Shown: positions 23,167 through 44,624 of the stretch, in pieces
Layout of the letters: each line of letters begins with the position of its first letter
Numbering within the stretch: position 1 is the first letter of the stretch
Source of the DNA: Spirochaetia bacterium
GTDB taxonomy: Bacteria > Spirochaetota > Spirochaetia > UBA9216
DNA: 64,000 nt
Assembly (NCBI GenBank): GCA_965140585.1
Contig: OZ223272.1
Coordinates: forward strand, 274,775-338,774
Direction of reading: 5' to 3'
Notes under the pieces: generated by a model
What the model was told of the DNA's origin: nothing
The model's database searches: none
Seen by the model: only the letters and a program-made list of their open reading frames with translations
Program-made: the position numbers and the translations under genes

Positions 23167-23251
23167 ACCTTTTTATAATTGACTTCAACTGAAAAAAATA
23201 ATACCTTATCATTAAGTAGCACGTTTTTATATTTTCGTGTCACTTCTTGTA

Positions 23252-23271
23252 CTGAATAACACCGTATTCAG
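23252..23271. promoter_or_regulatory. Inverted repeat CTGAATA-N6-TATTCAG in the nikR-to-ABC intergenic region (candidate NikR operator)
   Basis: It is a perfect 7-bp inverted repeat about 60 bp upstream of the SBP gene start. Confidence 0.35.
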
Positions 23272-23330
23272 AAAAAACTAACTGAGTTTACAAGAAGCTC
23301 AATCTCATAAAAACCTTGGAGGTATCTATT

Positions 23331-24476
23331 TTGACATTCTCAGGACAAAAACGTCTGCATTCAAACATCACAAGGCTGATGATGCTCTGTCTTATTTTTA
23401 CTGCAGGAAGTTTCAGTCTCTTTGCATCCGCGCAGCAGGAGGAACCTGCAGCACAAACCCCGTCCACACTGACGGACATGCGCGGCCGTGAGATCGAAGT
23501 TCCGGAAAATATCGACGGAATAATTGCACTTGATGCGGGCTCACTCAGGCTGCTTTGCTACATGGGTGAGACGGATAGAATTATTGCCGTTGAAGACGCC
23601 GGGCACGGGAGAGAAAAATCCCCGTACGGCTTCTTTTCACTGGCGACATACCGGATTGCTTTTCCGGAGCTTAAAAATCTTCCAAGCATCGGGAATAAGG
23701 AAAATCATGAAGGAATTATTGCTGCAGCTCCCGACATCATAATATCATCTACAGTAGACGCCGCACAGCTTGACCAGCTGCAGCAGATACTCGGGATTCC
23801 GGTATTCGGGGTAGATGTAGATGTTGAACTCTACGATACTGAACTGTTCTACCGTCAGCTGGATACACTGGGTAGTCTTCTTAGTAAGCAAGCCCGGGCG
23901 GAAGAGCTCATTACCGGAATTGAAGAATCATTGACAGATCTGAAGGACCGCAAATCAGAGGTTACAAATCCCGTAAAAGCCTATTCCGGAGGAATGATGT
24001 ATTACGGACCGGCCGATCTGCTCAGAACAACAGGTGACTACCTCCCCTTCAGCTTAAGCGGGGCAGAAAATGTAATGCCGACCAACCCGGCCGGAAATCT
24101 GCAGCCCTACATGACATCACTTGAAGATCTTATTTCAGCAGCACCCGATTACGTATTTATAGATTCAGCCAATATAAATCTGTCAAAACAGGGTTTTGAG
24201 ACAAACCGGGAAGTACTTGAAGAACAGGTTCCGGCATTCACCAACCGGCAGGTTTATTCAACCTTTGTTTATAAATATTACGGAACAAACTGGGAAAATC
24301 AGCTTATCAACGTTTACTATGCCGGCAAGATTCTTTACCCGGAAATATACGGCGATTTCACAATTGAAGATAAGGCCGAGGAAATATGGGAATTATTTTT
24401 TAATGTTCCGCTTAATTTTACAACCGTTACAGAACAGCAGAAGGGCGGACCTGCACAGGTTGACTGGTTTAACTGA
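23331..24476 (+). CDS. ABC transporter periplasmic binding protein, class III (FecB/CeuE/BtuF-like)
   Basis: The TTG at 23331 lies 8 nt after GGAGG and gives a clean signal peptide (KRLHSNITRLMMLCLIFTAGSFSLFASA). The PBP-class-III layout precedes FecCD and ATPase genes. Confidence 0.65.
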   Translation: MTFSGQKRLHSNITRLMMLCLIFTAGSFSLFASAQQEEPAAQTPSTLTDMRGREIEVPENIDGIIALDAGSLRLLCYMGETDRIIAVEDAGHGREKSPYGFFSLATYRIAFPELKNLPSIGNKENHEGIIAAAPDIIISSTVDAAQLDQLQQILGIPVFGVDVDVELYDTELFYRQLDTLGSLLSKQARAEELITGIEESLTDLKDRKSEVTNPVKAYSGGMMYYGPADLLRTTGDYLPFSLSGAENVMPTNPAGNLQPYMTSLEDLISAAPDYVFIDSANINLSKQGFETNREVLEEQVPAFTNRQVYSTFVYKYYGTNWENQLINVYYAGKILYPEIYGDFTIEDKAEEIWELFFNVPLNFTTVTEQQKGGPAQVDWFN

Positions 24477-24478
24477 GT

Positions 24479-25522
24479 ATGAATATCTACAGCTCTTACA
24501 AAAAAGAGCAAAGTAAGCGCATTCTTTTCATATCGGCAGCAGGAGTCATTCTTGCTGCCCTTGTTGTTTTTTCAGCATCTGCAGGAACTATCAGAATTCC
24601 TCCGAAAGATGTGCTTGCCTATGTTTTCCGCTTCGATAATTCAGGCACAGGCCGCATAGTCTGGGATGTAAGAATGCCCCGTATTATTGCAGCCATGCTG
24701 GTCGGAGCCGGTCTTTCACTCTCAGGAACTGTAATGCAGTCGGTCCTGCGAAACCCGCTGGCCTCACCATATACTCTGGGGCTTTCAAGCGCGGCGGCCT
24801 TCGGAGCTTCATTTGCAATAGTATTTCTCGGTGCAGGGACGGGAACTACCTCAACTATCATTATCAGCAGTTCATTTACAGTCGCCGCTTCTGCGTTTTT
24901 CTTCTGCGCAGTTTCTACAGTAGCCATTCTGCTGCTGACAGTATTCACCAGGATTTCGGCTGAGAGTATGGTCCTTGCCGGAATTGCGATAGGGTCTCTT
25001 TTTTCCGCCGGACTGACTTTAATGCAGTACCTGGCAGACAGCGTACAACTGGCAAGCATCGTCTCCTGGACTTTCGGAGATCTAGGCAGGGCGAACAACC
25101 GCGTGCTTGTAATCACAGCTTCTGTACTCATTCCGCTGTTCATTGCATTTTTTTATTTCCGGTGGGATTTCAATGCCCTTGATACCGGAGAGGATACGGC
25201 TAAAAGTCTTGGAATTAAGACAGGAGCCCTGCGTATTGCGGGAATGGCAGCAGCCTCTATGATCTCGGCGGTCATAGTATCTTTTTTCGGAACCATAGCA
25301 TTTATAGGTCTTTTGGGTCCCCACATTGCCCGAAGGCTGCTTGGTTCAGACCACCGGTTTCTGCTTATCAGCTCTCCGCTGATTGGCGCAATAATACTTC
25401 TAGCCGCCGACACAGCAGCAAGAACAGTATTAACCCCGATGGTTCTTCCCGTAGGCATCCTTACCTCAATCTGCGGCGGGCCGCTCTTTATATATTTACT
25501 TGTGGCAGGAAGGAACAGATGA
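24479..25522 (+). CDS. FecCD-family ABC permease
   Basis: It is a 347-aa polytopic protein with an FecCD-type conserved Gly-rich C-terminus 'ICGGPLFIYLL'. Confidence 0.8.
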   Translation: MNIYSSYKKEQSKRILFISAAGVILAALVVFSASAGTIRIPPKDVLAYVFRFDNSGTGRIVWDVRMPRIIAAMLVGAGLSLSGTVMQSVLRNPLASPYTLGLSSAAAFGASFAIVFLGAGTGTTSTIIISSSFTVAASAFFFCAVSTVAILLLTVFTRISAESMVLAGIAIGSLFSAGLTLMQYLADSVQLASIVSWTFGDLGRANNRVLVITASVLIPLFIAFFYFRWDFNALDTGEDTAKSLGIKTGALRIAGMAAASMISAVIVSFFGTIAFIGLLGPHIARRLLGSDHRFLLISSPLIGAIILLAADTAARTVLTPMVLPVGILTSICGGPLFIYLLVAGRNR

Positions 25523-26271
25523 TTCTTAAGGTAGACGGTCTGAGTTTTGCTTATAAAAGCCGCCGGGTTATTGATGATGCAGGCTTTGAACTCAAAGAGG
25601 GCGAAATACTTTCAATTCTCGGTCCGAACGGCGCGGGAAAAACGACTCTTCTAAAATGCCTCAACCTCATACTTTCTCCTGACAGGGGCACAGTTTTAAT
25701 TGACGGAAAAAACTGCCGTGATATCGGCCATGGTGAAATGGCCAGAAAGACAGGCCTTGTAGCCCAGCATTCCGAACCCGTCAGAATGAAGGTATATGAT
25801 TTGGTTCTGCTTGGAAGAAAACCTCACTTTCACTGGTCTCCGCGAAAAGAAGATCATACCATAGTTGAAGAAGCTATCAAGCTGATGGGCCTGGAAGAGC
25901 TTGCACTCCGCTATGCCGACGAGTTAAGCGGCGGGGAGTTCCAGCTTGTCCAGATAGTCCGGGCTCTTGCCCAGAGCCCCAGACTGATACTTTTTGATGA
26001 ACCGACAAGCAGTCTGGACATCAGTCACCAGCATCAGCTTATGGCAAGAATCAGCACCTTAATCCACTCAAAACCGATGGCTGCCGTAATGACAATGCAC
26101 GACATTAATCTTGCGCTCCGCTACTCAGATAAATTTCTGCTTATCAGGGAAGGCCGGGTACATGCTGCAGGCGGGAAAGAGATAATAAATCCTGAGAATA
26201 TTAAAGAGGTTTACGGGATGGAATCTGCTGTAACAGAGGCCTGCGGACATACAATCGTTATTCCGGTTTGA
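25519..26271 (+). CDS. ABC transporter ATP-binding protein (FepC/FecE-like)
   Basis: Walker A 'GPNGAGKTTLL', signature 'LSGGEFQ' and Walker B 'LILFDEPTSSLD' are present. It overlaps the permease through ATGA. Confidence 0.85.
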   Translation: MILKVDGLSFAYKSRRVIDDAGFELKEGEILSILGPNGAGKTTLLKCLNLILSPDRGTVLIDGKNCRDIGHGEMARKTGLVAQHSEPVRMKVYDLVLLGRKPHFHWSPRKEDHTIVEEAIKLMGLEELALRYADELSGGEFQLVQIVRALAQSPRLILFDEPTSSLDISHQHQLMARISTLIHSKPMAAVMTMHDINLALRYSDKFLLIREGRVHAAGGKEIINPENIKEVYGMESAVTEACGHTIVIPV

Positions 26272-26285
26272 TATGGAAAACCTCA

Positions 26286-26813
26286 ATGTCTGAAATAGTA
26301 AAAACTGTCGAATTTCAGCTTCAACGATATCCTCTTTCAAGACTGAAAGATATCTACAAAAGCTTCTTTCAGGATGAGTTCGGTCCGGGTCATATACTTG
26401 AAGCTCCGGAAGAGGCCATTAACTATCTTAAAAAGGAGCTTTCCACTGCAAAAAGCCAGAGCCGTTATGAAGCGGAGCTCTGCGGAACCGGAAAACACTT
26501 TTGCCGTATATCTTTAGATCTAATCATAGACGGCAGAATCAGTTTAGACCGGTATTTCTCTGAATTCATTTCCGGTGCAGCAGACTTCGCCCTCCCTGAA
26601 ATTGGAGAGTGGAAAATCAAATGGAATAATATACTGGAGAAACTGAAACCTTTGAGCCATGTAATCAACAACTTCGATGAGGATTCTGTATTTATACTCA
26701 GGAACCTTGAAGAAGGAAAGTATGCAATGCACCACAGCAGTCTGTATAGACAGGCATATGATCCTCATTACCGGATTTTTAGAATCAGTAATTCAAATTT
26801 TGATATTTCGTAA
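26286..26813 (+). CDS. Hypothetical protein (~176 aa) fused at the operon level to the Ni-type ABC importer
   Basis: The ORF overlaps the ATPase stop. The start is ambiguous: TTG 26268 or ATG 26286. I find no recognisable motifs. Confidence 0.4.
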   Translation: MSEIVKTVEFQLQRYPLSRLKDIYKSFFQDEFGPGHILEAPEEAINYLKKELSTAKSQSRYEAELCGTGKHFCRISLDLIIDGRISLDRYFSEFISGAADFALPEIGEWKIKWNNILEKLKPLSHVINNFDEDSVFILRNLEEGKYAMHHSSLYRQAYDPHYRIFRISNSNFDIS

Positions 26814-26874
26814 AAAGAAGGCGCCGGAAACCGTGAAGGGCTTCCGGCGCAAAGTGAAGGAATACAAAATGAAA

Positions 26875-29286
26875 TTATAAAGTATGGGACATTCGGTTAA
26901 TTACCTCGTCCTGAATACCGTCTGTAAGGCGTGTGAAGTAGGCACTGTAGCCTGCAACCCGAACAACCAATTCAGGATGATCCTCGGGATGAACCTTTGC
27001 ATCAACCATATCTTCACGGTTAACAATATTAAACTGAATATGCTTACCGCCGTTAGTCAGGTAGGTCTTAATCAAGGCCCCGAGTTTCTTTAAATCACTT
27101 TCAGTTTTCATGTTCGTAGGATGAAACTTCATGTTCATCAGTGTTCCCTGGTAGGGATCCTGGTTGACTTTCATGGCACTCTTGAAAACTGCTGTAGGTC
27201 CGTGGACATCCTGACCATGATCGGGAGACAATGAAGCATCTGCAAGAATCTCTCCGCCCTTTCTTCCATCTGCAGTAGCTCCTGTACAGGCGCCGCCGGG
27301 CTGATGTGCAGAAATTGAAATTGCGTTCGGCTTGAGCGAATCACCATAGGCGCATGGCAGGCTGTGGCAGGTATCGGCATGGAGCTGATAAACTTCTGCA
27401 ACCATTGCATCAACTTCAGAATCATCGTTACCGTATTTGGGCACTGCAGCAAAATCAGTCTGCATTTCTTCATATCCAACCCAGTCTGCATCAAGGGCTT
27501 CCATCAGCTGCTTCATGGTGTATTTCTTTTCATCGAAGACAAGCTTCTTGATGGCGTACATGGCGTTACCTGTATTTACACCGCCGACTGCGCCGAGAAC
27601 CGCACCGTTTTCAAAATCAAAACGGCGGTTAAACATATCCTTACCAACCTTGACCCCGTCTTTCATAAGTGAAGATCTGAAGACATCCGGAAAGAGATCA
27701 CGCTCTGCTATAAGCTCTACGTTGATTCGCTCATTTGCCATGCTCATCAGATGTTTTATCTGGGCATGCATTGCAGCCTTGAACTCATCAAAGGTTTTCA
27801 TTTCAGTGACATCGCCTGTCTGCATACCGACCATTTCCTCTGTATAGCGGCAGTATCCGTTATGCATGCAGATATCCATAGCCTGGGGTATGATAAAAAA
27901 GCAGGCTACCTGAGTTCTGGTTACAGAAGGAACGTTGGCATCAACACAACCTGTTGCTACATAATCTCTGGCAACTTCAATCGAAAGCTTGTTTTTGTCG
28001 CTCTGTGAAGTAAAGAAGTTGATGTTTGATTCATCACCGAGAAAGGCTGGAAGACCGAGTCCGCTTCTTACGCACTCAAGCGCCTTAACCATCAGTTTTT
28101 CAGGAGTTCCTTTATGAACACGGACAGTTATGGTGTGGTGGGGAAGATGCGTATCGAGTGCCGCATCAAGAAGAAGATAGCTCAGCTCATTTGTAGCATC
28201 GCTGCCGTCAGCCTTCTGACCGCCGATTGTCCAGTTATACCACTTTGCCATACCCGCATTCTTTGCCCTGTTTGCCTTTCCTGATACACGGTTGATTTTC
28301 ATAACTTTGCAGCGCATGATTTCAAGGAGTTCGAGAATCTTATCGTCATCGCTTCGGCCGCTGTCGATATCGGCCTTATAGAAGGGATACATGTACTGAT
28401 CAAAACGGCCGGCTGTTGATGTAGGTGAAGGACATACGAGCAGGAAGGTAAACCAGAAAGACTGCAGTGCTTCATGGAATGTTTCAGCAGGTTCATATGG
28501 AACCTTGCGGCAGATTCTGGCCATCTCGACAAGTTCAGACTTTCTGTCGGCATTGCTTTCAGCCTCAGCCATCTTCTCGGCAAGATCAGCATAACGGCCT
28601 GCAAAGCGGACCCATGCTTCATAAACAATGATTATACCTTCCCAGAAGTTTCTCTTTTCGATTGCATCTGAAGAATCATAGCGGAGGTCAAGAAGACACT
28701 GCTTTGCTTCTTCAATTACAGACTTTGCTCCGCCGTTAAGGATACGTGAGTAGTCAATTCCAACCAGAGAAAAGCCCGGGCCCAGACCGTATCCTGACAT
28801 TGCAAATCCGCCGCCGGAACCTCCGGTTCTGTCCTTCCATGGAGGAAGTATTGTTCCTGATTTCATGAAAGGCCATAGACGTTCTGTCATTCCGAGAGAT
28901 TTACCCATTGTCTCAACCAGGTTGCTGTTGAGTGAATTTCCGGCAAAGCGTTCGTTGAGTTCGTAAAGTTCTTTCTCATCTTCAGGATCGATGGTATAGA
29001 TTTCACTTTTAAGCGACTCTACTTCATCCTGTGTCCAAACGCCGTATTCATACTGCATCTCAAGACCGAAGGGCTTGCTTGCACCTGAGCCGCAGAGTAA
29101 GTCATCCTCTTCAATAAATATATCAATGTTATCAAGAATATGTGCGTGCAGTTTTGATCGGCGCAGCAGCATCGGCTCTCCGGCTGTCATATCCAGCGAC
29201 TCATTTGCCAGCCTGAACAGCTGAATACACAGCGGATATTTATTGACCCGCAGACTTTCTTTCATTCGTTCAACACGACCTGTCAT
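26875..29286 (-). CDS. Glycyl-radical enzyme (PFL2/glycerol-dehydratase-type fold), intact, with no adjacent activase
   Basis: It is 803 aa with the C-terminal Gly-radical motif 'RVAGYSAYF'. The mid-protein Cys-loop reads 'ATGCVDANV'. Confidence 0.8.
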   Translation of the reverse strand: MTGRVERMKESLRVNKYPLCIQLFRLANESLDMTAGEPMLLRRSKLHAHILDNIDIFIEEDDLLCGSGASKPFGLEMQYEYGVWTQDEVESLKSEIYTIDPEDEKELYELNERFAGNSLNSNLVETMGKSLGMTERLWPFMKSGTILPPWKDRTGGSGGGFAMSGYGLGPGFSLVGIDYSRILNGGAKSVIEEAKQCLLDLRYDSSDAIEKRNFWEGIIIVYEAWVRFAGRYADLAEKMAEAESNADRKSELVEMARICRKVPYEPAETFHEALQSFWFTFLLVCPSPTSTAGRFDQYMYPFYKADIDSGRSDDDKILELLEIMRCKVMKINRVSGKANRAKNAGMAKWYNWTIGGQKADGSDATNELSYLLLDAALDTHLPHHTITVRVHKGTPEKLMVKALECVRSGLGLPAFLGDESNINFFTSQSDKNKLSIEVARDYVATGCVDANVPSVTRTQVACFFIIPQAMDICMHNGYCRYTEEMVGMQTGDVTEMKTFDEFKAAMHAQIKHLMSMANERINVELIAERDLFPDVFRSSLMKDGVKVGKDMFNRRFDFENGAVLGAVGGVNTGNAMYAIKKLVFDEKKYTMKQLMEALDADWVGYEEMQTDFAAVPKYGNDDSEVDAMVAEVYQLHADTCHSLPCAYGDSLKPNAISISAHQPGGACTGATADGRKGGEILADASLSPDHGQDVHGPTAVFKSAMKVNQDPYQGTLMNMKFHPTNMKTESDLKKLGALIKTYLTNGGKHIQFNIVNREDMVDAKVHPEDHPELVVRVAGYSAYFTRLTDGIQDEVINRMSHTL

Positions 29287-29469
29287 AGTAAACCCCTTAT
29301 TTATGCATTAATTGCGATTTAAATTTTCTATGTAATAAATCAGTTGGCTAAGCCTAACATGTTTATTCTTTAAATAAAAACAAATCATCCCCGGAAAATT
29401 AAAGTCTGTGACATGCATACAAACAGCCTTCCGGGTAATGTGCTCATTGCATATGCAAAAGCATATGTT

Positions 29470-30630
29470 CTAAGCAATAATAACCTCATCCCCTTCTATG
29501 CTGTACGCAGTTTCTATATTCATCATCTGATCAATATTCTTCATGTAATCAAATATAGTATTAAATAGCGGATCATCATTCTTCACCGCGTAGGGCTTGA
29601 AATCATCAGGAATGTAGACCGGAATATAGGAGACGCGATCTATCTTTTTGTCTTTAACTGAAATCTTGGCTATCATTGAATAGTAGCAGTCTTCAGGGAA
29701 GGTCTTTGCCGCGTTGCCGGTGCCGAATCCCTTGCGTATCTTGGCCATCTCCTGATGTTTTTTTGACGTACGCATATCCTGACGCAGAGTTTTTTTATCG
29801 CGTTCCATTTTATCAGGGTCGGTCATTGCAAAATTGCCCAGTGAATAGAAGATAACCTTACCCTTGTAGACTTCGATAGGTTTGAGGATATGAGCATGGT
29901 GCCCCAGAATTAGATCCGCCCCGGCATCAATTGCTTCATATGCATATTCTCTCTGATACTCGGCAATCTCGGCCTTGGTAAAATGAATACCCCAATGCAT
30001 TGAAACAACAACTATATCAGCCTGCTTTTTAGCCTGAGCAATATCATCAAGCAGATGCACCTTGTCCTGTTTGTGAGCCCAGCTGTGCACTCTGCAGGGT
30101 GTTCCCGGCTGATCATGCTCTATCTGCTCATAGTATGTATGCCCGCGTGCAGGGTTAACACCGGGACGGGCTTCCTGCGCCCAGTAATCCTGCGGCAGTA
30201 TTGTGCAGTAGCCGAGAAAGGCAATCTTTGTTCCGTCACGCTCAATCACTGAAAAGCGGCGGGCGTCTTCTTCGTTTTCACCGGCGCCGATAACTTCCAT
30301 ACCTGCATTCCTCAGATAATCAACTGTATTAAGGAAATGAAAACGGCCGTAGTCAAGCGAGTGGTTTGAGGCGAATGATACTATATCAAAGCCGGCATCC
30401 TTAAGCACCGGAGCTACTTTCGGATCTGAAGAGCAGGGCATTCGAGCCTGTGAAGCAGCAAATGGAAACAGGTCATCAATTTTTTCATCGATGAGAACGG
30501 TTTCAAGCTGACCGAATGTAATATCAGCATCCTGAAGTATTGGTGCAACATGGTCGTACAGACCATCATAGTATCCCATTCCCGGAATATTATCTCCTAC
30601 CCCCAGAATGGTTATGTTTTCTTTATTCAT
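29470..30630 (-). CDS. CapA/PGA_cap-family metallophosphoesterase-like protein
   Basis: 'ILGVGDNIPGMGYYDGL...VSFASNHSLDYG...GHHAHILKPIEVYKGKVIFYSLGNF' matches the CapA family. Confidence 0.7.
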   Translation of the reverse strand: MNKENITILGVGDNIPGMGYYDGLYDHVAPILQDADITFGQLETVLIDEKIDDLFPFAASQARMPCSSDPKVAPVLKDAGFDIVSFASNHSLDYGRFHFLNTVDYLRNAGMEVIGAGENEEDARRFSVIERDGTKIAFLGYCTILPQDYWAQEARPGVNPARGHTYYEQIEHDQPGTPCRVHSWAHKQDKVHLLDDIAQAKKQADIVVVSMHWGIHFTKAEIAEYQREYAYEAIDAGADLILGHHAHILKPIEVYKGKVIFYSLGNFAMTDPDKMERDKKTLRQDMRTSKKHQEMAKIRKGFGTGNAAKTFPEDCYYSMIAKISVKDKKIDRVSYIPVYIPDDFKPYAVKNDDPLFNTIFDYMKNIDQMMNIETAYSIEGDEVIIA

Positions 30631-30644
30631 ATATTTAATCCTTA

Positions 30645-32024
30645 TTAAAGAAGTTCTGTAAACTCGCAGATGTTTTTACAGTCTTCGAGAGTTCTGATTG
30701 AAGATTTCAGCAGGTCAAGTTCCTGCTGAGTCTTAGGGTTAACTGCATTTTGTGCGCAGGAATCAAACTTCAGAGCAAACATGTTTTCATCCATCGGATT
30801 CTCAGGAGTACCGAAGGGGTTTGTAACCATGCGTTCAAATGTACCTACGGCGGTTTCGATAACAACCTTAGTCCAGGCCTCCTTTCCCCGCTGCCAGTCT
30901 TCCATATATGTATAATCGATAAGTGAAGCCAGAGCCCTGACTTGCTTATCCTGAAGGTTTTCCTTACTGAAACTGTTTAAATCAACATTCCCCTTGATTA
31001 GAGCTGTAGCCATTGTAAAGGGAATACTGAACTTCCCAATTATTGATGATTCGGGATTCCGTCTTTCATCAAGCGGCTCAAAAAGCATTTTGTTCTGAGC
31101 TCCGATTGAGACCTGAATATGTTTTATGTCTTCAGCCTTTACATTCTCTTCTTTCGCAATAATTGAAGCTGCGGTGATTGATGAATGAGTTCCCAAACAG
31201 CAGGGCCATACCTTGAATGTAAGATCGCCTGCCTCGTAATGAATACCCAGACCGTCAAAGGCCTTCTCTGCGGTATAGTTGTCATGAAGAAATGCATGAT
31301 AAAAGCCAAGCTCCCCTTCAAGCGGGGCATCAAAACCAGTAAGCCCCTCCCGGGCCATACAGCAGGCGACAATAGCATTTCTGGCAGTAAAGGATTCACG
31401 AATGGACCTTAGAGCAGTATTCGGATTGTTGACGAGCTCACTACTGCAGGTGCTTTGACAGAGATTAAAAGAAAAAGCGCTTACAATCTGCTCAGCATTT
31501 AAACCCATAATCTTTGCAACAGCCGCGGTTGCTCCGTAGGATGAATAGATTGTGGGGATGTAAAATCCGTACTCAAGTGTATTAACATCGGCTGCCAGGG
31601 CAATGCGGACTGCAACCTCGCTTCCGAGCACCAGGGCTTCAAGAAGTTTTTTGCCTGATACGTTTCCCATCGTCTCTGCCATTGCCAGAGCTGCAGGAAA
31701 ACTTGATGAGTTTGAATGGATTGTGCTTCGTAAATGAGTATCTCCGAAATCCAGAGAGTGCGCCATTGAAGCATTGGCAAACGCCGCCCAGGCTGCGGGC
31801 AGACGTTCCCGGAATCCTATTACAGCAGCTTCCCCGCTTCCTCCGGCCGACAGTTCCTTCGCAATTTTAAGCATCTGGCTGCAGCCGTCCCCCAGACCGG
31901 AAGCGCCGAGTGTAATTGCCACGGCATCCATCACCGATTTCTTCTGAGTCTCTATAACACGCGGATCAATATCATCATATACAGTTTCTGCCACAAATTC
32001 TGCGAGAGTATGGGAAAGGTTCAT
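30645..32024 (-). CDS. MmgE/PrpD-family protein (2-methylcitrate dehydratase / cis-aconitate decarboxylase / IDS-epimerase superfamily)
   Basis: It is 459 aa, and its N-terminus 'LAEFVAETVYDDIDPRVIETQKKSVMDAVAITLGAS' is typical of the family. Confidence 0.7.
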   Translation of the reverse strand: MNLSHTLAEFVAETVYDDIDPRVIETQKKSVMDAVAITLGASGLGDGCSQMLKIAKELSAGGSGEAAVIGFRERLPAAWAAFANASMAHSLDFGDTHLRSTIHSNSSSFPAALAMAETMGNVSGKKLLEALVLGSEVAVRIALAADVNTLEYGFYIPTIYSSYGATAAVAKIMGLNAEQIVSAFSFNLCQSTCSSELVNNPNTALRSIRESFTARNAIVACCMAREGLTGFDAPLEGELGFYHAFLHDNYTAEKAFDGLGIHYEAGDLTFKVWPCCLGTHSSITAASIIAKEENVKAEDIKHIQVSIGAQNKMLFEPLDERRNPESSIIGKFSIPFTMATALIKGNVDLNSFSKENLQDKQVRALASLIDYTYMEDWQRGKEAWTKVVIETAVGTFERMVTNPFGTPENPMDENMFALKFDSCAQNAVNPKTQQELDLLKSSIRTLEDCKNICEFTELL

Positions 32025-32115
32025 AAAGACTCCTGGTAATCTTTTATTTCTTTTAATACAGGGAAGCCCTTAGGGCTTCCCCAATTGGTTTTATTTTTAA
32101 ATGTTAAGCGGGGGA

Positions 32116-33180
32116 TTATTTTGCCATTTCAACAATATCTTTAATTATTGGATCAAGTCTGTTCCATTCATCCATAACTTCTTTACCCGGCCATGTGTAG
32201 TACTTTGAAGTTCCGCCGTTAATAAGAGTTCTCTCATAGTAATCACCCTCTGTCTCTGCGCCGAGAGCATCAATGACTTCTGCAATTTGAGCAACAATTT
32301 CATCAGGAGTGGCTGCCGGAGCTACGAACATTGAGCGGTTGGGAATAGCAAGAGCCTTGCCTTTTTCTTCACCGAAAACATCGATAAGTGTAGGAACACT
32401 CATGATGATGTCCTTTTCTTCACCGTCTTTGTAGTAGGAATAATCAGCATTGTCACGTGAGTTGATGATTGCCTTAACCTTGTCATCCTTGAGGTAGCCG
32501 CTGGCTGCCCATTCATCAAGAATAATTATATTTATATTTCCGCCTAAAAGGCCGGCAGAGGCATCTGCATTTGTAGTTGAAACCCATCTGATATCTTTTG
32601 CTACGCCGGTTCCGTTAAACAGACCCTTCATTTTGATATCCATAACTTTTCCGGCAATAGAGGCTACTGTTACTTTTCCGGGGTTGGCTTTTGCATATGC
32701 TGCAAGTTCTTCCCAGTTGCTGTAGGGCTGATTTGCTTGAGTTACGAGAATACATCCTGAATCCGGATAGGGCTGAATAGCTCCGCATACAAGCTTAAAC
32801 TGGCTTGTATCGCAGGGGTTAACTGACCACAGACCACTGTAGTAGTTTGCAATACAGTTCATACCGATAAGCATAAGAGTCTGTCCGTCCGGATCAGCAT
32901 GAACAAGCTGGGTAGCAAGGTTGGCCCCGCCGCCTGTATCGTTGTTCTCAATTCGAACTGTTGCACCTGTCTTGTCTGTAATCCAGTCTGCTACTGTATG
33001 GATATTGATATCGGTCCTTGAACCGACAGCATAACCTGCCAGAATTGTAATGTCACCATTGGGCCATGATGCTGATTCAGAAGATTTAGCTGATGAACCT
33101 TCTGCGGATTTTGTTTTGTCACAACCGGAGAGACTGAAGATCAGTCCAACTGCTATGAGTAATACAATTACCTTTTTCAT
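32116..33180 (-). CDS. tctC: Tripartite tricarboxylate transporter substrate-binding lipoprotein (TctC/Bug family)
   Basis: It starts at MKKVIVLL with GGAGG upstream. It has lipobox 'LSGC' and a Bug-family-length mature domain. It is adjacent to tctA and tctB. Confidence 0.7.
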   Translation of the reverse strand: MKKVIVLLIAVGLIFSLSGCDKTKSAEGSSAKSSESASWPNGDITILAGYAVGSRTDINIHTVADWITDKTGATVRIENNDTGGGANLATQLVHADPDGQTLMLIGMNCIANYYSGLWSVNPCDTSQFKLVCGAIQPYPDSGCILVTQANQPYSNWEELAAYAKANPGKVTVASIAGKVMDIKMKGLFNGTGVAKDIRWVSTTNADASAGLLGGNINIIILDEWAASGYLKDDKVKAIINSRDNADYSYYKDGEEKDIIMSVPTLIDVFGEEKGKALAIPNRSMFVAPAATPDEIVAQIAEVIDALGAETEGDYYERTLINGGTSKYYTWPGKEVMDEWNRLDPIIKDIVEMAK

Positions 33181-33248
33181 TTCTTCCTCCAAATTTATAT
33201 TCAAATACAGGTTGCCCTGTTATTTGCGAAGATTTTTAAAATTTCCAT

Positions 33249-34769
33249 TTATTTGACTGCTGCCGCAGCTTTTCTTTCGGCTATGGCCTTCTTGATAACA
33301 GGTCCCACGAAACCGTATATAAGAACACCAAGTCCTACTATGATAAATACGCAGGATATAGGTCTGCGGAAAAACTCTGAAAAACCGTTTATTGAATAAT
33401 TCAGCCCCCTTCTGATATTAAGTTCAAGCATGGGCGAAAGTATGAATGCCATCAGAAAAGGCAGACTCGGCACCCCGAAGACATCCATAACTATCCCCAG
33501 CAGACAGAAGAACAGCGCGACCATCAGACCGAAGAAGCTTCCTGTAGTCATGAAAGCACCGGTCAAAGCCAGAATTACAACCATTGAATAGAGGTAGTGA
33601 TAGGGAATCTTCAGCAGAGCTGGAAAGGTCTTCATACAGAATGTTTCATACAGAAGACAGATTACTGCAGCAATAAGGGCTGCAATAAAAATGATGTAAA
33701 CGATCATCGGCTGTTCACGCATGAACATCGGACCTACGTTTATTCCCTTAACATTCAGGGCAGTAATAAACTGAACATTGGCCGCGTCTCCGGGAATACC
33801 CAGTGCGATAAGCGGAATAAGAGCACCGCCGATTGCGGAGTTCTTGGCAATTTCGGGACAGAGAACACCGGCAATCTCACCCTTGCCCCATTTGGACTTG
33901 TCCTTTGCAAGCATTCTCTCGGTGGAATAGCCCATAACAGAGGCAACAGGACCGCCGAGGCCCGGAAGGAATCCTACAACAGCACCGAGGATCCAGGATC
34001 TCAGTACGGGAAGTTTATTCTTTGAAAGGTCTTTTCCGGGCCACTTGTACCCGCCGACCTTGATATCGATTTTCTGTTCAGTCTTACTTGCCCTCGCATA
34101 TTCAAGTAGAATAATCTTGGCGGCAAAAAGGCCAAGCATTACGCTGATAAGGTTCAGGCCCTTTAGGAACTCAAGACGTCCGAAAAGTAAAAAACGTCCG
34201 CTTGCATTTATGGGGTCTTCACCGATTGAAGCCAGAAAGATTGCAAGGCCTACACCAATCATACTCTTTACGAGGTTGCCTTTGGACAGTCCTACAACCA
34301 TCAGAATTGCGCAGAAACATAAGGCGGCATATTCCCATGGCCCAAGTTTAACCGCCCATATTGCAATGCCGCGGCAGGCAAAGATTGCAAGGATGATTGA
34401 AGGGAAGGTTCCCAGAAAGTTAACTGTTACCGCTGCGCTTAAGGGGCGGACAGGGTCTCCCTGCTTGGTAAACTCGTACCCGTCCCAGACCGTTGCCAGC
34501 GAAGAGGCAGTGCCTGGAATTCCCAGAAGAATTGAACCGATACATCCGCCGGACATACCTCCTATTACAATTGAAATAAACAGCGCCAGAACCAGGTTGG
34601 TATCCAGACGATAGGCTATAGGTAATAAAATTACCATCAACGTTGAGCTTCCCAGGCCGGGAATAGCTCCAAGCACGATTCCGCCCAGGGCTCCCGCTAT
34701 TATGTATATAAGTCCTGTAGGCGTAAAAATATTATGCAGTGCACCAAAAATTAAATCCATTATTTCCAT
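33249..34769 (-). CDS. tctA: Tripartite tricarboxylate transporter large permease TctA
   Basis: It is a 506-aa polytopic protein with a TctA-like duplicated architecture. Confidence 0.75.
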   Translation of the reverse strand: MEIMDLIFGALHNIFTPTGLIYIIAGALGGIVLGAIPGLGSSTLMVILLPIAYRLDTNLVLALFISIVIGGMSGGCIGSILLGIPGTASSLATVWDGYEFTKQGDPVRPLSAAVTVNFLGTFPSIILAIFACRGIAIWAVKLGPWEYAALCFCAILMVVGLSKGNLVKSMIGVGLAIFLASIGEDPINASGRFLLFGRLEFLKGLNLISVMLGLFAAKIILLEYARASKTEQKIDIKVGGYKWPGKDLSKNKLPVLRSWILGAVVGFLPGLGGPVASVMGYSTERMLAKDKSKWGKGEIAGVLCPEIAKNSAIGGALIPLIALGIPGDAANVQFITALNVKGINVGPMFMREQPMIVYIIFIAALIAAVICLLYETFCMKTFPALLKIPYHYLYSMVVILALTGAFMTTGSFFGLMVALFFCLLGIVMDVFGVPSLPFLMAFILSPMLELNIRRGLNYSINGFSEFFRRPISCVFIIVGLGVLIYGFVGPVIKKAIAERKAAAAVK

Positions 34770-34781
34770 TATTTTTTATCC

Positions 34782-35276
34782 TCAGTAGAGAAGTTTAAAT
34801 ACCAAACCTTCGGGAAGCCTTGCGTTAAGACCTACAACATACGCAAGGTATACACAAACGCTGGCAATTACCGCATAGATAAGGCTTTTCAGAATACGCT
34901 TTTTCAGCTCAAGCTCCTTCAGCGACAGCCTGCTCATAAGAAAGGTAAGAGTGAAGGCAATAATCGGAAGAGAGAGCATAAATCCCAGAAGGAAAAACAG
35001 AAGAGCAACTCCGATATAAACACCGAACATGGTAAGTGCCGAGAGCCACTGTTTACGGGTAAGGAAGGTACCCGCCACCTTACCAGGCTTGATAATCAGC
35101 GCAATTCCGCAGATAAGCATAATTGCGGCACCGGTCATCGGGAACATTTTGGGACCCGGGTCACCGTCATATCCTGAAGCCCTGAGCTGCATTGAAAGAA
35201 TAGTAATCAACGCAGCAATCACAATAGTAGCAACACCAAGGATAAAATCTTTCTTGTTTTTTATATATTCAGTCAT
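34782..35276 (-). CDS. tctB: Tripartite tricarboxylate transporter small subunit TctB
   Basis: It is a 164-aa four-TM protein immediately upstream of tctA. Confidence 0.65.
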   Translation of the reverse strand: MTEYIKNKKDFILGVATIVIAALITILSMQLRASGYDGDPGPKMFPMTGAAIMLICGIALIIKPGKVAGTFLTRKQWLSALTMFGVYIGVALLFFLLGFMLSLPIIAFTLTFLMSRLSLKELELKKRILKSLIYAVIASVCVYLAYVVGLNARLPEGLVFKLLY

Positions 35277-35577
35277 TTTGAAATTTCCGTTTTAAATAGT
35301 TTGGGTCTGAGCGCAGCACGAGGCGGGCAATTCATGTAGATCTCCTTTAATAAAAATTTTCTTTTCCTTTGATTCTCAGGCTAACACGTTTTAGTTTTTC
35401 CTTAAAAATCATTTTTTAAAGACGCCCGATAACCTGTGATAAAAGCACATTAATGGAAGTAATTTTTGTACTTTTCGCACACCGGCCTGCTCAAACGGTT
35501 TAATTCGACAAAACCAGCGATTAAGAATATAATCAAGCCTTAAGTTCCGTTTTTAAACATTCAGGAGTACAAAAACA

Positions 35578-37143
35578 ATGCTTTATCTGTCATATCTATT
35601 CCAGCATCTGAGGCAGTGCACCGTTTACGCCGATGAAAAGAACCTGCCGGAAACATGCCCGCAGGAAGTTGATTTTATAGATGATCAGAAAAGCCTTTGC
35701 GCAGATAAGACATGGATAGGCGCGGGCGAGGAAACAGTAAGAAATCTTCAAAATGCCGAAATTGAACCCGGTACTGTAATTTTTATATGTGAACACAAAT
35801 CAAATTATGTGATCCTGAACAAGAATCCTGAAATTACGGTTATATACCTTTCCTGTCCGCGGACGAACCTTTTTATTATGATCAACAAAATACTCACTCT
35901 CAGGCAGATCTGGCTTGATAAATATGCCACAGCTGATGATCAGTCCTTATACGCAATGCTTAATCTGACATCCGATTTTGCAGAATCTCCGGTCATTCTG
36001 CTGAATCCGAATTACCGCATCGTACTCAGCTGCAAATTGGAAGAAAGCAAATTTCTAGCCGGACATCTGGACCAGACAGGAGCTCTCCCAAAAAAAATTG
36101 CAGACTCTATTTTTATAAACAGATCGGAGAAGCATTTACCGGTTGAATACAAGGTAGCCGAGAGCGGTATTCGCCTTTACGGATACCGGATATATCACGA
36201 GGATCAGCTTGTTAGTGTTATCTTGATTGAAAGCAGCATTGAACAGACCGAGATTGACTGCAGGGGATTATGCGTCTGTGCCGGACAGGCGATTCACCGC
36301 CACATACTGCCGGCCAATTCGCTGAAGCTTGGAACCTATACAAAGGACTTCAGACAGTTCTGGATGGAAATAATGGATCAAAGCCTGACCCAGACCTTCG
36401 AGATAATTCAGAGACTGAGGCTGATGCCCTTTCCAATTGAAACCTTTGTCCGCGTGATTGTTGTAACATTCCGGAATAAAAACACAAAGCAGACGCCCTC
36501 AAGTTTTATATTTGCACAGCTGCGCGAAGTGTTTCCGGACTGCAATATGACGATTCACGAGAATGAGGTTGTGATTCTTCAAACCTATCCACAGCGGACA
36601 TTCAACCTAAACCTTGACACAAAAAGGCTTGAAACCATTCTTGAGCGGCACAACGGTTTCATTGGGATAAGCAACGGAACCAGGGATTTCGGAAACCTGC
36701 GCTCACTCTATATTCTGGCAAAAAACACAATTCCGCTGGCCTGCGAACTTAGGGAGAACCTAAAAGAGAGGATATTCTTTTACGAGGAGTTCTGGATATA
36801 TACCGCAATAGATATGTGCGCTCACAGGTTTTACGAACTTCATCACCATAACGACATAGTCTATCTGATTCATCCGGCGGTTGTGCACCTGACCAGATAC
36901 GACAGGGATCATAACACAAACCTTAGGGACACCCTGTTTTATTATCTGCTGAATGACCGCAACCTGGTAAAAACAGCGGCGGTTACCTATGCTCACAGAA
37001 ATACAGTCATAAATAAGGTTAATAAAATCAACAAACTCATTGAGCTTGATCTTGAGGACGGCATTCTGCGTCAGCGTATTATATTCTCATGCCAAATGAT
37101 AAGGTATCATGAAAAGTACATGAAACGCGAACTGAAGATATAA
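35578..37143 (+). CDS. PucR/CdaR-family transcriptional regulator, divergent from the tct operon
   Basis: The C-terminal PucR-type HTH reads 'LRDTLFYYLLNDRNLVKTAAVTYAHRNTVINKVNKINKLIELDLED'. Confidence 0.7.
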   Translation: MLYLSYLFQHLRQCTVYADEKNLPETCPQEVDFIDDQKSLCADKTWIGAGEETVRNLQNAEIEPGTVIFICEHKSNYVILNKNPEITVIYLSCPRTNLFIMINKILTLRQIWLDKYATADDQSLYAMLNLTSDFAESPVILLNPNYRIVLSCKLEESKFLAGHLDQTGALPKKIADSIFINRSEKHLPVEYKVAESGIRLYGYRIYHEDQLVSVILIESSIEQTEIDCRGLCVCAGQAIHRHILPANSLKLGTYTKDFRQFWMEIMDQSLTQTFEIIQRLRLMPFPIETFVRVIVVTFRNKNTKQTPSSFIFAQLREVFPDCNMTIHENEVVILQTYPQRTFNLNLDTKRLETILERHNGFIGISNGTRDFGNLRSLYILAKNTIPLACELRENLKERIFFYEEFWIYTAIDMCAHRFYELHHHNDIVYLIHPAVVHLTRYDRDHNTNLRDTLFYYLLNDRNLVKTAAVTYAHRNTVINKVNKINKLIELDLEDGILRQRIIFSCQMIRYHEKYMKRELKI

Positions 37144-37154: not shown

Positions 37155-38009
37155 TTAAGAAAAATTATTCCTGCACATATCGACAATCTCGTCCCTGCGG
37201 TCAACGCCCAGCTTGTCCCTGATATGCTTCATATGCTCTTTAAGTGTATAGGGTGAGATCCCGAGCCTTTCAGCCAATGCTCTGTCCCTTTCCCGGTAAA
37301 CAACCAGAGCCTCAATAACCTCCATCTCTCTGGGAGTAATACCCATGGAGTCAAGATCGGCAGGCTGGGTCAGCTGTCTGTACACCAGATCAAGATCATC
37401 AAGCTTGTTCTGCAGGCGGGTCCGCTCCATCTCTATCCGGCTCAGTTTATTTTCAGCCTCGGTTGTTAATTTTACGTAATAGATTATTTCATTTGAATAG
37501 ATAGTGTATAGGACACCTATAAAGACAAGGATATACATTATTGCATCCAGGCCGGCATTCCAGTGCACCACACCGCTCTGAAGCCTTGCAGCAATTTCAA
37601 TAATAACAAATATTATACCTATAAATAGAAATATCTTTAAAAGGGGCTTCTTCTCAAAGAGACCGTAGCGGAAACCGATTATCAAAGCAAGGATAACCAG
37701 GCCCAGTCCATGGAAGGAATTATAAACATCAAGAATTGCAATTGCACCTACAAGAAAGAAGATACACAGCTGAACATACCTTAAGAAATTGATGTCCTTA
37801 AGTGAAGTTAAGAAGGTAATGATTGAAACTGCAAGTATAACGCTTACGGAAGGATACAGCAGTGCATCAAGAACTGAGACTCTTTGCAAAAGACCGACAA
37901 AGTTAATAATTACAACAAGCATCCCAAGAGAGGAAACTATGTAGGCGATTCTTTTTTGTACCTTAAAAACCGAAGATTTTTTAGCTGATATCCCAGAAGC
38001 CATCGACAT
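37155..38009 (-). CDS. Membrane-anchored LuxR-family regulator (about 6 TM segments plus a C-terminal LuxR HTH)
   Basis: The HTH reads 'MEVIEALVVYRERDRALAERLGISPYTLKEHMKHIRDKLGV'. The N-terminal 200 aa are hydrophobic. Confidence 0.7.
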   Translation of the reverse strand: MSMASGISAKKSSVFKVQKRIAYIVSSLGMLVVIINFVGLLQRVSVLDALLYPSVSVILAVSIITFLTSLKDINFLRYVQLCIFFLVGAIAILDVYNSFHGLGLVILALIIGFRYGLFEKKPLLKIFLFIGIIFVIIEIAARLQSGVVHWNAGLDAIMYILVFIGVLYTIYSNEIIYYVKLTTEAENKLSRIEMERTRLQNKLDDLDLVYRQLTQPADLDSMGITPREMEVIEALVVYRERDRALAERLGISPYTLKEHMKHIRDKLGVDRRDEIVDMCRNNFS

Positions 38010-38529
38010 CTCCTGAACTCAAAATTTCATCCATTTCAGGACTTTCTACATTTTGTATTTCAGTGAGAAGTTGAGTTTCAACTGCCGAAGCATCCCATTT
38101 ACCGGCAGAAACAGGATTATACTTCCCCTTAGCTCCGTCGGAGTCGGTATCCTTCACGTGGTTGCGCAGACTCTGAAGTGCAAGCAGAGCCATTCCTCTT
38201 TTTATGATCTTTTCATCACCGCCCTGAAAATTCGATATATTGAACAGCCTGGCATAGACATCCTGATCATCAAGGTCATTATGTTCAAAAACAGATTTTC
38301 CCGCGGCCCTGGCAATATGGTATACAGCAAGATTCGCAACCGAGGTCCTCATTGGCTGTGAACAGCCGGCCAGAAAGGGGATTGCGGCAATAAGCTTTGC
38401 AGTTTTGTTTTCTGATAATTTCTTACTTTCATCAGCACTGAAACCGAATGAAGAAGAAACAACAGAAACTATGCTTTCCCATTGCCCGTCCGTGAACCCT
38501 GCTGAACTTGAATTTTCCAAAGTACCCAT
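37981..38529 (-). CDS. Hypothetical acidic protein (182 aa)
   Basis: GGGAGG precedes the ATG at 38529. Its 3' end overlaps the downstream LuxR gene by 29 nt. I recognise no motifs. Confidence 0.45.
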   Translation of the reverse strand: MGTLENSSSAGFTDGQWESIVSVVSSSFGFSADESKKLSENKTAKLIAAIPFLAGCSQPMRTSVANLAVYHIARAAGKSVFEHNDLDDQDVYARLFNISNFQGGDEKIIKRGMALLALQSLRNHVKDTDSDGAKGKYNPVSAGKWDASAVETQLLTEIQNVESPEMDEILSSGDVDGFWDIS

Positions 38530-38590
38530 GAAAACCTCCCGAAAATCTAAATAGATTATAAACGGGATAAGCATTTTTAGTCACTATGTT

Positions 38591-41665: not shown

Positions 41666-41674
41666 CTGCTGTTA

Positions 41675-44581: not shown

Positions 44582-44624
44582 AAATTGCTCCTTTAGTTGA
44601 ATCTATTATCTCCCCTGTCTGGGG

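Follow-up and report, generated by a model that had tools for sequence, protein, structure and literature searches.

What is encoded by a gene string in which the three components of a tripartite tricarboxylate transporter (TTT) are followed, on one strand, by an MmgE/PrpD-family gene, a CapA-family gene and a glycyl radical enzyme (GRE), with a PucR-family regulator on the opposite strand? The string lies in a 64,000-nucleotide stretch of contig OZ223272.1 from a Spirochaetia bacterium (assembly GCA_965140585.1), which we call the window and in whose coordinates positions are given. GREs carry out gut-microbial reactions with effects on health, such as the formation of trimethylamine, p-cresol, skatole and sulfide. 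Whole clades of them are still without an assigned function (2026 review, PMC13450708). A reading of the window from its sequence alone had suggested that the string may be an uncharacterised anaerobic organic-acid degradation route and that its combination of genes is not a described pathway. Indeed, we found no publication on this combination, the June-2026 review included. In the literature search, no paper linked a GRE to PrpD, or MmgE to the CapA family; one match for GRE with PucR, like those for TTT, proved incidental.

The results described below make it fairly probable that the locus is a catabolic regulon under a PucR-family activator, in which two co-directional transcription units with similar operator and promoter elements would import a carboxylate and convert it by radical chemistry. 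The orphan GRE clade and the recurrent linkage of its neighbours favour the organic-acid route proposed earlier, but the coupling turned out to be modular and the GRE stands in a putative unit of its own. For enzyme discovery we regard the locus as a well-defined target, with a GRE clade whose catalytic motif is altered and a conserved, modular regulon, and not as a new category of system or a solved pathway.

The glycyl radical enzyme and its clade

The minus-strand order tctB, tctA, tctC, PrpD-like, CapA-like, GRE had been given with coordinates and gaps that proved exact (12, 44, 91, 14 and 183 nt from tctB towards the GRE, by the coordinates of the open reading frames, ORFs). Pfam supported every family, and a PucR-type helix-turn-helix domain was found in the divergent ORF, as claimed (Table 1). 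For tctC, the listed TTG start is probably in error: the lipoprotein signal starts at an ATG at 33180, the likely true start. The GRE is intact, as had been stated: it has both the PFL-like barrel and the C-terminal glycine-radical domain of the superfamily, its glycine motif RVAG779Y fits RVxG[FWY], and its catalytic cysteine lies on the loop GC447VD449.

The description of this enzyme as an orphan held against every curated cut-off. It scored 514.5 bits with the NCBIfam model TIGR01774 for the PFL2/glycerol dehydratase subfamily (cut-off 678.2) and 345–487 bits with the GRE equivalogs HpsG, IAD, CutC, HypD and HPAD (cut-offs 1000–1150), the single values being 487 for the HpsG type, 434 for IAD and 431 for CutC. 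The best solved relatives were glycerol dehydratase (GDH) 1R8W at 429 bits and then the arylacetate decarboxylase (AAD) 7E7L at 407 bits. In the alignment with 1R8W, the positions of GDH His164 and of the residues that we take to be His281 and Asp447 are Leu, Pro and Val, respectively; His164 and Asp447, which presumably handle the second hydroxyl of the substrate in a diol dehydratase, thus have no counterpart here. The loop GCVD aligns with the GCVE loop of the same structure, and Asp449 replaces the catalytic Glu435. The GRE superfamily review (PMC13450708) names His164 of GDH, numbers the two residues of the GCVE loop Cys433 and Glu435, and reports that Cys-x-Glu is kept by all GRE eliminases and isomerases, whose Glu forms a hydrogen bond to the hydroxyl of the substrate; none of the GREs that it lists acts on a di- or tricarboxylate. 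The window enzyme, which reads Cys447-Val-Asp449, lacks this signature of the 1,2-eliminases and isomerases.

To place the enzyme in the manner of a sequence similarity network, we searched 1.84 billion representatives at 50% identity. The nearest clusters (≥36% identity) carried Cys-x-Asp (CxD) in 16 of 22 cases, whereas the weaker representatives (<36% identity) carried Cys-x-Glu (CxE) in 66 and CxD in 5. The loop reads GCVD in all 75 full-length copies at ≥70% identity in the loci of relatives, GCLD in paralogs of 42–58% identity at the same loci, and GC[LM]D in paralogs overall. By these comparisons, the enzyme is placed in a distinct and internally diverse Cys-x-Asp clade, separate from the CxE sequences, and is assigned to no characterised family.

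Members of the clade occur in Clostridia, Actinobacteria and Spirochaetes, from gut, rumen and sediment, and the orthologous group of the window GRE is 70–88% identical across Lachnospiraceae, Oscillospiraceae, Eggerthellaceae, Coriobacteriaceae and Spirochaetes. A copy with 99% identity is found on a contig of a Spirochaetia metagenome-assembled genome (L079; L-numbered loci are those of relatives in other genomes). In loci of the Mediterraneibacter gnavus type (L084–L086), the GRE–activase pair adjoins a transposase and a conjugative-element block (coupling protein of a type IV secretion system, RepA, ParAB); one M. gnavus GRE sequence was present on 113 contigs, and the same protein appears, letter for letter, in 153 indexed blocks of the collection. 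The high identity across lineages, together with these mobile-element neighbours, points to horizontal spread of the clade under strong constraint. What makes the clade attractive is this strong conservation across phyla combined with a difference from all characterised members at the key acid/base residue. Cultured carriers include M. gnavus, Clostridium sp. AF32-12BH, Murimonas intestini, Youngiibacter fragilis and Fusibacter ferrireducens.

The differences from known GREs extend beyond the motif. With the 1,2-eliminases and isomerases (1R8W, propanediol dehydratase, CutC, HypD, IslA/HpsG, HplG and YbiW/PflD), the window enzyme has in common the PFL-like fold, the Gly_radical domain, the RVxG[YF] motif and a Cys loop of equal length; however, it has Cys-x-Asp in place of their Cys-x-Glu, falls below all their cut-offs, and belongs to a clade that is paired with carboxylate carriers and PucR rather than with microcompartments or with diol, amine or sulfonate genes. 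The arylacetate decarboxylases (AAD 7E7L, IAD, HPAD and PAD) use carboxylic acids and provide its second-best solved match, and some related GRE loci carry genes for PadR regulators, enoate reductases and 2-hydroxyacyl-CoA dehydratases, as is typical for the metabolism of aromatic acids. On the other hand, the enzyme lies far under their equivalog cut-offs (1100–1150) and has no small subunit, and the position equivalent to Asp449 is Leu in AAD (by alignment), Glu in HPAD and IAD, and an essential Gln484 in PAD.

Gene linkage and shared regulatory regions

The linkage of the GRE to TTT, PrpD-like and CapA-like genes was examined by counting neighbours over 78 GRE loci from other genomes. An activase was found in 51 of these loci, a PucR homolog in 45, a CitMHS/MatC-type carboxylate carrier in 32, a CapA-like gene in 17, a PrpD-like gene in 10 and TTT genes in 6; CapA-like and PrpD-like genes occurred together in 9. 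The PucR homolog was usually directly divergent from the GRE, as in the spirochaete relatives L001 and L057, where the PucR ortholog scored 661–692 bits and a CitMHS carrier follows. At least five gene orders connect the GRE with CapA-like, PrpD-like and TTT genes in Lachnospiraceae, Blautia, Oscillospiraceae, Clostridiaceae and unclassified Clostridiales, including activase-GRE-tctBAC-capA-prpD-pucR (L040), GRE-prpD-capA-tctBAC (L058, L059), GRE-capA-tctBAC (L075), GRE-prpD-CitMHS-tetR-capA (L029, L032, L034) and CitMHS-GRE-activase-CitMHS-capA (L067, L069). Because the orders vary, selection on the linkage appears to explain this recurrence better than descent from a single arrangement. The linkage that the sequence-only reading had pointed out recurs in unrelated genomes; it is frequent but not obligatory, since the commonest neighbours are PucR, the activase and CitMHS/MatC carriers and the five-gene block also occurs without a GRE.

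Other recurrent neighbours were URO-D-like genes, an S15-peptidase/esterase fusion with Opp-type ABC genes, OYE-type reductases, CoA-transferases, acyl-CoA dehydrogenase, subunits of 2-hydroxyacyl-CoA dehydratase and PadR regulators. Two further features recur beside the GRE–activase genes of Firmicutes, namely a TPR-repeat protein, in 7 loci, and a DUF4037/DUF4125 pair (L003, L006, L008, L011, L054 and others; L017, L052, L054). The idea that TTT and CitMHS carriers are mutually exclusive was dropped: none of the 78 loci has both, but L090 does.

The locus L090 repeats the window order exactly, with pucR divergent from tctBAC-prpD-capA-GRE, and continues with a CitMHS carrier. Although synonymous sites have reached saturation in this comparison, six of the proteins are still 78–90% identical (PucR, the exception, 56%), and dN/dS is 0.02–0.08 where it could be computed; tctA, for example, is 90% identical with a dN/dS of 0.02, and the GRE is 87% identical with a dN/dS of 0.03. 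The gene arrangement has been held under purifying selection beyond synonymous saturation.

A reverse search that started from the CapA-like and PrpD-like proteins showed the string from its other end. The five-gene block tctBAC-prpD-capA, followed by a URO-D-like gene, was found in L081, L088, L089 and L091; there is no GRE within 10 kb in the last three, and L081 has only a distant GRE of 29% identity. More distant capA-prpD pairs adjoin esterases, a beta-lactamase-family hydrolase, Opp-type ABC systems, CitMHS carriers and PucR or PadR regulators. A metagenome scan with the PrpD-like protein yielded three loci only. Because the block or the pair occurs without a GRE, the helper enzymes are not dedicated to it: capA and prpD form a tight unit of two enzymes, the block tctBAC-prpD-capA behaves as a portable module, and the GRE is a frequent but non-obligatory partner.

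The URO-D-like proteins, which match PF01208 weakly to moderately, stand directly after the block where it lacks a GRE, recur in L094, and are also present in or beside the GRE clusters L041, L051, L055, L058, L061, L063 and L066. No corrinoid-protein genes were seen in the annotated contexts of L088–L094. A URO-D-like gene as an isofunctional replacement for the GRE was rejected as a rule, since such genes also lie in or beside the GRE cluster in about seven loci of the GRE family.

Whether the six genes form a single string depends on the gap between the CapA-like gene and the GRE. No terminator-like site was found in this 183-nt gap, and read-through from the first unit into the GRE is thus possible. 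However, the gap contains a putative independent promoter whose control elements resemble those of the tctB promoter. It aligns with the sequence between the PucR and GRE genes in L001 and L057 as well as with the tctB upstream region of the window, and the aligned regions have a common order of blocks: a palindrome like TGTGC-N5-GCACA, the motif ATGTnnGC..TCACAG, a spacer of 46–47 nt and the extended -10-like element TGYTASSST. The composite layout occurs in L001, L057, L079 and L090. A strict version of the pattern matched the window twice, upstream of the GRE and of tctB, with 0.03 matches expected for this post-hoc pattern, and a relaxed version gave 8 matches in the 1.63 Mb of fetched loci and the window, all upstream of a GRE or tctB (window, L079, L090, L001 and L057). 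These statistics are descriptive only because the patterns were defined after the sites had been seen. The strict composite promoter was rejected as a general feature; it is absent in Firmicute loci and hence lineage-specific, whereas the palindrome alone is general.

Given the post-hoc definition of the composite pattern, the palindrome provides the more independent support. Perfect copies of TGTGC-N5-GCACA numbered 22 in the 1.63 Mb of fetched loci, against about 1.6 expected, and 16 of the 22, from Firmicutes, Actinobacteria and spirochaetes alike, lie in the 350 nt that precede a GRE, tctB, PrpD or PucR gene. In many loci they are found 130–230 nt upstream of GRE or tctB genes, including the tctB upstream regions of L081 and L088, which are counted among the loci without a GRE (L081 for its distant one only). 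With up to one mismatch allowed, the palindrome was present in 32 of 97 regions upstream of a GRE (33%) and in 6 of 13 upstream of tctB (46%), compared with 54 of 3000 random 350-nt windows (1.8%); the regions upstream of tctA (0/12), tctC (0/12), capA (0/28) and CitMHS genes (0/42) had none. The three one-mismatch copies in the window all fall within the two regulatory regions, upstream of tctB and upstream of the GRE.

We regard the 183-nt gap as a putative conserved promoter/operator region of the GRE. Its homology to PucR–GRE promoters, together with the tctB-promoter motifs that it carries, suggests two units in one regulon, and the GRE is unlikely to be merely the final gene of a single operon. 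We infer that the PucR-type regulator is paired with the palindrome as its operator. Like the activators of the PucR/CdaR family (B. subtilis PucR and E. coli CdaR), this regulator has a C-terminal HTH_30 domain and stands divergent by its presumed target genes; it differs in having no recognised known sensor domain and in matching the PucR-family equivalogs at ≤29 bits, and the candidate operator TGTGC-N5-GCACA was derived in this analysis. A search of solved structures with the PucR protein gave no useful clue to its ligand. The short ORF upstream of tctB may act by translational coupling or as a leader peptide. L090 has a 33-codon upstream ORF in the matching place (5270–5371), and both start with Met-x-Cys and are otherwise unrelated. 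No Rfam match or unusual RNA fold indicative of a riboswitch or leader was found in the gaps.

Table 1. Genes and candidate regulatory elements of the string, from the GRE terminator to the PucR gene
Feature	Position in the window	Strand	Support or remarks
Intrinsic terminator after the GRE	26821–26850	minus	12-bp stem, 9 GC pairs, then CTTCTTTTTA
Glycyl radical enzyme (GRE), 803 aa, Cys-x-Asp clade	26875–29286	minus	PFL-like PF02901, 486 bits; Gly_radical PF01228, 99 bits
Key codons of the GRE	Cys447 27946–27948; Asp449 27940–27942; Gly779 26950–26952	minus	
capA–GRE intergenic region, 183 nt	29287–29469	minus	Palindrome-like box 29439–29453; composite motif 29351–29422
CapA/PGA_cap-family metalloenzyme, 386 aa	29470–30630	minus	PF09587, 227 bits
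MmgE/PrpD-family enzyme, 459 aa	30645–32024	minus	MmgE_PrpD_N/C, 200/98 bits
Perfect 9-bp hairpin in the tctC–prpD gap	32061–32081	minus	No T-run after it; not a canonical terminator
tctC, solute-binding lipoprotein	32116–33204	minus	PF03401, 63 bits; lipobox LSGC
tctA, large membrane subunit of the TTT transporter	33249–34769	minus	PF01970, 363 bits
tctB, small membrane subunit of the TTT transporter	34782–35276	minus	PF07331, 54 bits
Upstream ORF of 20 codons	35273–35335	minus	Strong Shine-Dalgarno AAAGGAG; stop overlaps the tctB ATG (ATGA)
Composite promoter architecture upstream of tctB	35378–35450	minus	ATGTGC..TCACAG, 47 nt, TGTTAGCCT (extended -10-like)
Two one-mismatch copies of the palindrome TGTGC-N5-GCACA, candidate operator	35435–35449 and 35467–35481		Between pucR and tctB
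Sigma-70-like promoter of the PucR gene	35505–35533	plus	TCGACA-17-TATAAT, 11/12; best promoter-like site in the region; consensus match only
PucR-family transcriptional regulator, 521 aa, divergent from tctB	35578–37143	plus	HTH_30 (PF13556), 40 bits; weak GGDEF_2-like match

Transporter, helper enzymes and activase

The import of tri- or dicarboxylates had been claimed for the transporter. TctA, TctB and TctC (PF01970, PF07331 and PF03401) are encoded on adjacent genes, and the TTT system is complete, but a tricarboxylate substrate is suggested by the family name only, and TctC has no close characterised relative. Its scores to binding proteins with known ligands (terephthalate-, aspartate- and nicotinate/citrate-binding) were ≤46 bits, the closest solved relative being the terephthalate-binding protein at 46 bits. 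As in the tripartite tricarboxylate transporter TctCBA, the genes of all three components adjoin one another and a lipoprotein signal is present on the binding protein; in contrast to that system, the order is tctB-tctA-tctC and a PucR regulator stands in place of the two-component tctDE. Both carriers that are paired with the GRE clade, TTT and CitMHS/MatC, belong to carboxylate-carrier families. That relatives use a CitMHS/MatC carrier likewise suggests a carboxylate as the substrate.

For the MmgE/PrpD-family gene, the family assignment was right, and the nearest relative is iminodisuccinate (IDS) epimerase, not 2-methylcitrate dehydratase. Against solved structures, the protein scored 135 bits with IDS epimerase, 86 with cis-aconitate decarboxylase (CAD) and 36 with PrpD; its scores with PrpD equivalogs were ≤52 bits against cut-offs of 458–950 (52 against 575 in one case). 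Neither Pfam nor the window annotation revealed prpB, prpC or acnD near the gene, and it does not qualify as a 2-methylcitrate dehydratase. The protein keeps the active-site Asp/Thr/His/Lys/His of the superfamily, and it has in common with IDS epimerase, CAD and 2-methylcitrate dehydratase both family domains and most of what we take to be the catalytic residues of CAD. Apart from the low scores, it differs in that Tyr and Arg stand, in the alignment, where we place CAD His159 and Lys207.

A similar picture emerged for the CapA-family gene. Its product belongs to the PGA_cap family, as had been noted, and is nearest to the MslH epimerase rather than to a capsule-synthesis CapA: the only solved relatives were MslH entries at 82 bits, and the MslH equivalog gave 97 bits against a cut-off of 700. 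Of the His/Asp catalytic dyads and metal ligands of MslH, the residues N87, H88, D91, H259 and H295 correspond to N89, H90, D93, H212 and H247 in the window protein. D13 and E43 are plausible equivalents of MslH D11 and E44 but lie outside the aligned stretches, and MslH H261 aligns with a Gly. The N-terminus, MNKENITILGVGD, has no transmembrane segment, and the protein is soluble; pgsB/capB and pgsC/capC genes are absent from the window, and the profile of CapA/PgsA is not matched. Thus, the protein has the PGA_cap domain in common with CapA/PgsA and with the metal-dependent lasso-peptide C-terminal epimerase MslH, and equivalents of five MslH residues, but it lacks a lasso-peptide or capsule context and a membrane anchor, and in the loci of the reverse search it is paired with the PrpD-like gene and with uptake systems. 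Because the residues conserved with MslH are generic to metallophosphoesterases, an epimerase role is put forward as a suggestion.

The nearest relatives of the two helper enzymes, IDS epimerase and MslH, both act as C-alpha epimerases that take off and put back a proton next to a carboxylate. For this reason we propose, with modest confidence and by analogy, that the PrpD-like and CapA-like enzymes may interconvert stereoisomers or prepare a precursor for the stereospecific radical enzyme. Hydroxyproline epimerases play a comparable part for the hydroxyproline GREs.

The statement that the window has no gene for a GRE-activating radical-SAM enzyme was borne out by a motif scan, Pfam, phmmer and tblastn over the 64 kb. 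A CX3CX2C motif occurs only once in the window, within a Zn-alcohol dehydrogenase, and the phmmer and tblastn searches, for which two cognate activases served as queries, retrieved only a ferredoxin-domain protein. While an activase is adjacent to the GRE in 51 of the 78 related loci, TTT-type loci lack an adjacent one in 5 of the 6 cases among these 78 and in L090 (L018, L059 and L090 are examples). A homolog search identified P0123, 76% identical, among the closest relatives of the GRE-adjacent activase of L001. It lies in L087 (9021–14656 of contig ctg9555l, ENA assembly ERZ21878204) in the order MerR-activase-GRE-CitMHS/MatC; the contig is spirochaete-like, and the GRE of this locus has 795 aa, the loop GCLD and 58% identity to the window GRE. 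The same assembly holds the 99%-identical copy of the window GRE on contig ctg9561l. The tetranucleotide usage of L087 correlates with that of the window at r 0.95–0.97, which equals the values within the window and exceeds those of other spirochaete loci, a resemblance compatible with, but not proof of, membership of one genome. Because L087 occurs in the same assembly and its tetranucleotide usage is indistinguishable from that of the window, supply of the activase in trans by this paralogous locus is plausible.

Proposed route, alternatives and flanking genes

In the regulon that we favour, the PucR-type regulator would sense the imported acid or a derivative and activate both promoters. 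The first unit, tctB-tctA-tctC with the PrpD-like and CapA-like genes, would bring in a small anionic carboxylate through the TTT system, and the two cytoplasmic enzymes would turn a precursor or 'wrong' stereoisomers into the form that the GRE accepts. The second unit would consist of the GRE, with a strong terminator after it and possible read-through from the first. Once activated by a radical-SAM activase whose gene would lie elsewhere in the genome, the GRE would store the radical on Gly779; the Cys447 thiyl radical would abstract an H atom and Asp449 would serve as acid/base in a C–X elimination or isomerisation, or in a decarboxylation, of the imported acid. The gene neighbourhoods in other genomes would suit polycarboxylates of a peptide- or opine-like kind, given their Opp-type binding proteins, hydrolases of the S15 and beta-lactamase families and epimerase-like enzymes. 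They would suit hydroxy or aromatic acids from plants equally well, given their esterases, enoate reductases, PadR regulators, 2-hydroxyacyl-CoA dehydratases and URO-D-like proteins.

A bolder proposal, which we consider doubtful but worth stating, is that the Cys-x-Asp clade catalyses a reaction new to GREs on an imported di-/tricarboxylate or amino-polycarboxylate and forms, with the PrpD-like, CapA-like and URO-D-like enzymes, a new anaerobic pathway widespread in Clostridia of gut and rumen, including Mediterraneibacter gnavus. Candidate reactions may be a non-aryl (allylic or alkyl) decarboxylation, a B12-independent carbon-skeleton rearrangement, or C–N or C–O cleavage of a polycarboxylate. 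If the substrate is indeed a polycarboxylate, GRE chemistry would be extended to a new substrate class. The handles for finding it include two alternative carboxylate uptake systems, with a soluble binding protein open to ligand screening, a dedicated regulator with a predicted operator, recurrent helper enzymes, and natural GRE–activase pairs for expression.

Several observations weigh against a PucR-controlled regulon devoted to one imported acid. About 60 of the 78 GRE loci have neither CapA nor PrpD, and the neighbours elsewhere suggest more than one substrate class, with peptide-like, phenolic-acid-like or 2-hydroxyacyl-CoA chemistry. The block or the capA-prpD pair occurs with no GRE within 10 kb in L088, L089, L091, L092, L093 and L094, and its partners there and in L081 are URO-D-like genes, esterases, a beta-lactamase-family hydrolase and Opp-type ABC transporters. 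The residues that link the CapA-like protein to MslH are also those of metallophosphoesterases in general; the activase is absent from the window and from the 10 kb around the GRE in both L079 and L090; and the operator assignment is putative, with a composite promoter pattern that was drawn up after inspection of the sites.

These points lend some weight to a rival explanation in which the genes are adjacent but functionally separate, tctBAC-prpD-capA being a mobile module for another substrate that was inserted between an ancestral divergent PucR–GRE pair. The closest relatives, L001 and L057, do have PucR directly divergent from the GRE with CitMHS after it; the five-gene block is intact without a GRE in L088, L089 and L091, and with only a distant one in L081; and the GRE retains its own promoter region. 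We nevertheless consider such an insertion rather unlikely: these genes are linked to the GRE in at least five other orders across Clostridial lineages, the tctB-led block carries the palindrome of the GRE promoter even where no GRE is adjacent, an inserted module would have had to gain a matching promoter layout, and the arrangement is under purifying selection past synonymous saturation. An alternative in which the GRE is silent or decaying after loss of its activase draws on the missing activase and on the other GRE of the window, a Cys-x-Asp enzyme at 46666–48982 that is already a pseudogene with two in-frame stops and a frameshifting deletion. This appears improbable, since the first GRE is full length with intact Gly and Cys motifs, is 99% identical to the L079 copy and 87% to that of L090 with a dN/dS of 0.03, and resembles in its missing neighbour the TTT-type loci L018, L059 and L090, while L087, on another contig of the L079 assembly, offers a candidate activase in trans.

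The remaining two explanations concern single genes. Ordinary membership of the GRE in a known family, for example as a B12-independent glycerol/diol dehydratase, a sulfopropanediol dehydratase, a CutC or an arylacetate decarboxylase, would agree with its best profile and structure matches, which fall in these families; yet we judge it very unlikely, because all scores are far under the cut-offs (678 for the subfamily, 1000–1150 for the equivalogs), the Glu of CxE is an Asp and the GDH positions discussed above are not kept, the clade splits cleanly from the CxE sequences, and no microcompartment, diol, choline or sulfonate genes are nearby. The Pfam family name PGA_cap speaks for a poly-gamma-glutamate capsule function of the CapA-like gene, with a string that is biosynthetic instead of catabolic. 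The unanchored protein, the lack of pgsB/capB and pgsC/capC in the window, and its pairing elsewhere with a PrpD-like enzyme, uptake systems and hydrolases make this scarcely credible. The reading as a two-unit carboxylate regulon is therefore the one that we retain.

The pseudogene on the plus strand is 43% identical to the intact GRE and reads AGCMD at the loop and RVAGYSTYY at the Gly motif. Its lesions are an in-frame TGA at 47164–47166, a frameshifting deletion of about 23 residues near 47447–47460, and an in-frame stop just before 47618. An AraC-family regulator (45620–46588, plus) lies beside it. Convergent with it, the minus strand at 49059–60159 encodes an Opp/Dpp-type ABC transporter (two ATPases, two permeases and an SBP_bac_5 protein), a Peptidase_C69 protein, an OYE/Pyr_redox_2 reductase and a Zn-alcohol dehydrogenase; similar kinds of genes flank the GRE clade in Firmicutes. 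A link between the OYE-type reductase (57168–59084) and the GRE was rejected, given 28% identity to the reductases that neighbour GREs elsewhere.

Two further clusters border the string. On the plus strand at 22723–26813, convergent with the GRE, there are a NikR-like regulator, a FecCD-type metal/siderophore ABC transporter (binding protein, permease and ATPase) and a 181-aa ORF with no family match; this cluster is probably unrelated to the string. Past the PucR gene, the minus strand at 37155–45638 encodes a LuxR-type protein, a 197-aa ORF of no family, a GH106-like protein of 1024 aa with a weak alpha-L-rhamnosidase match, the TRAP transporter components DctM, DctQ and DctP, and a DHDPS-family lyase, and it looks like a separate cluster for sugar-acid utilisation.

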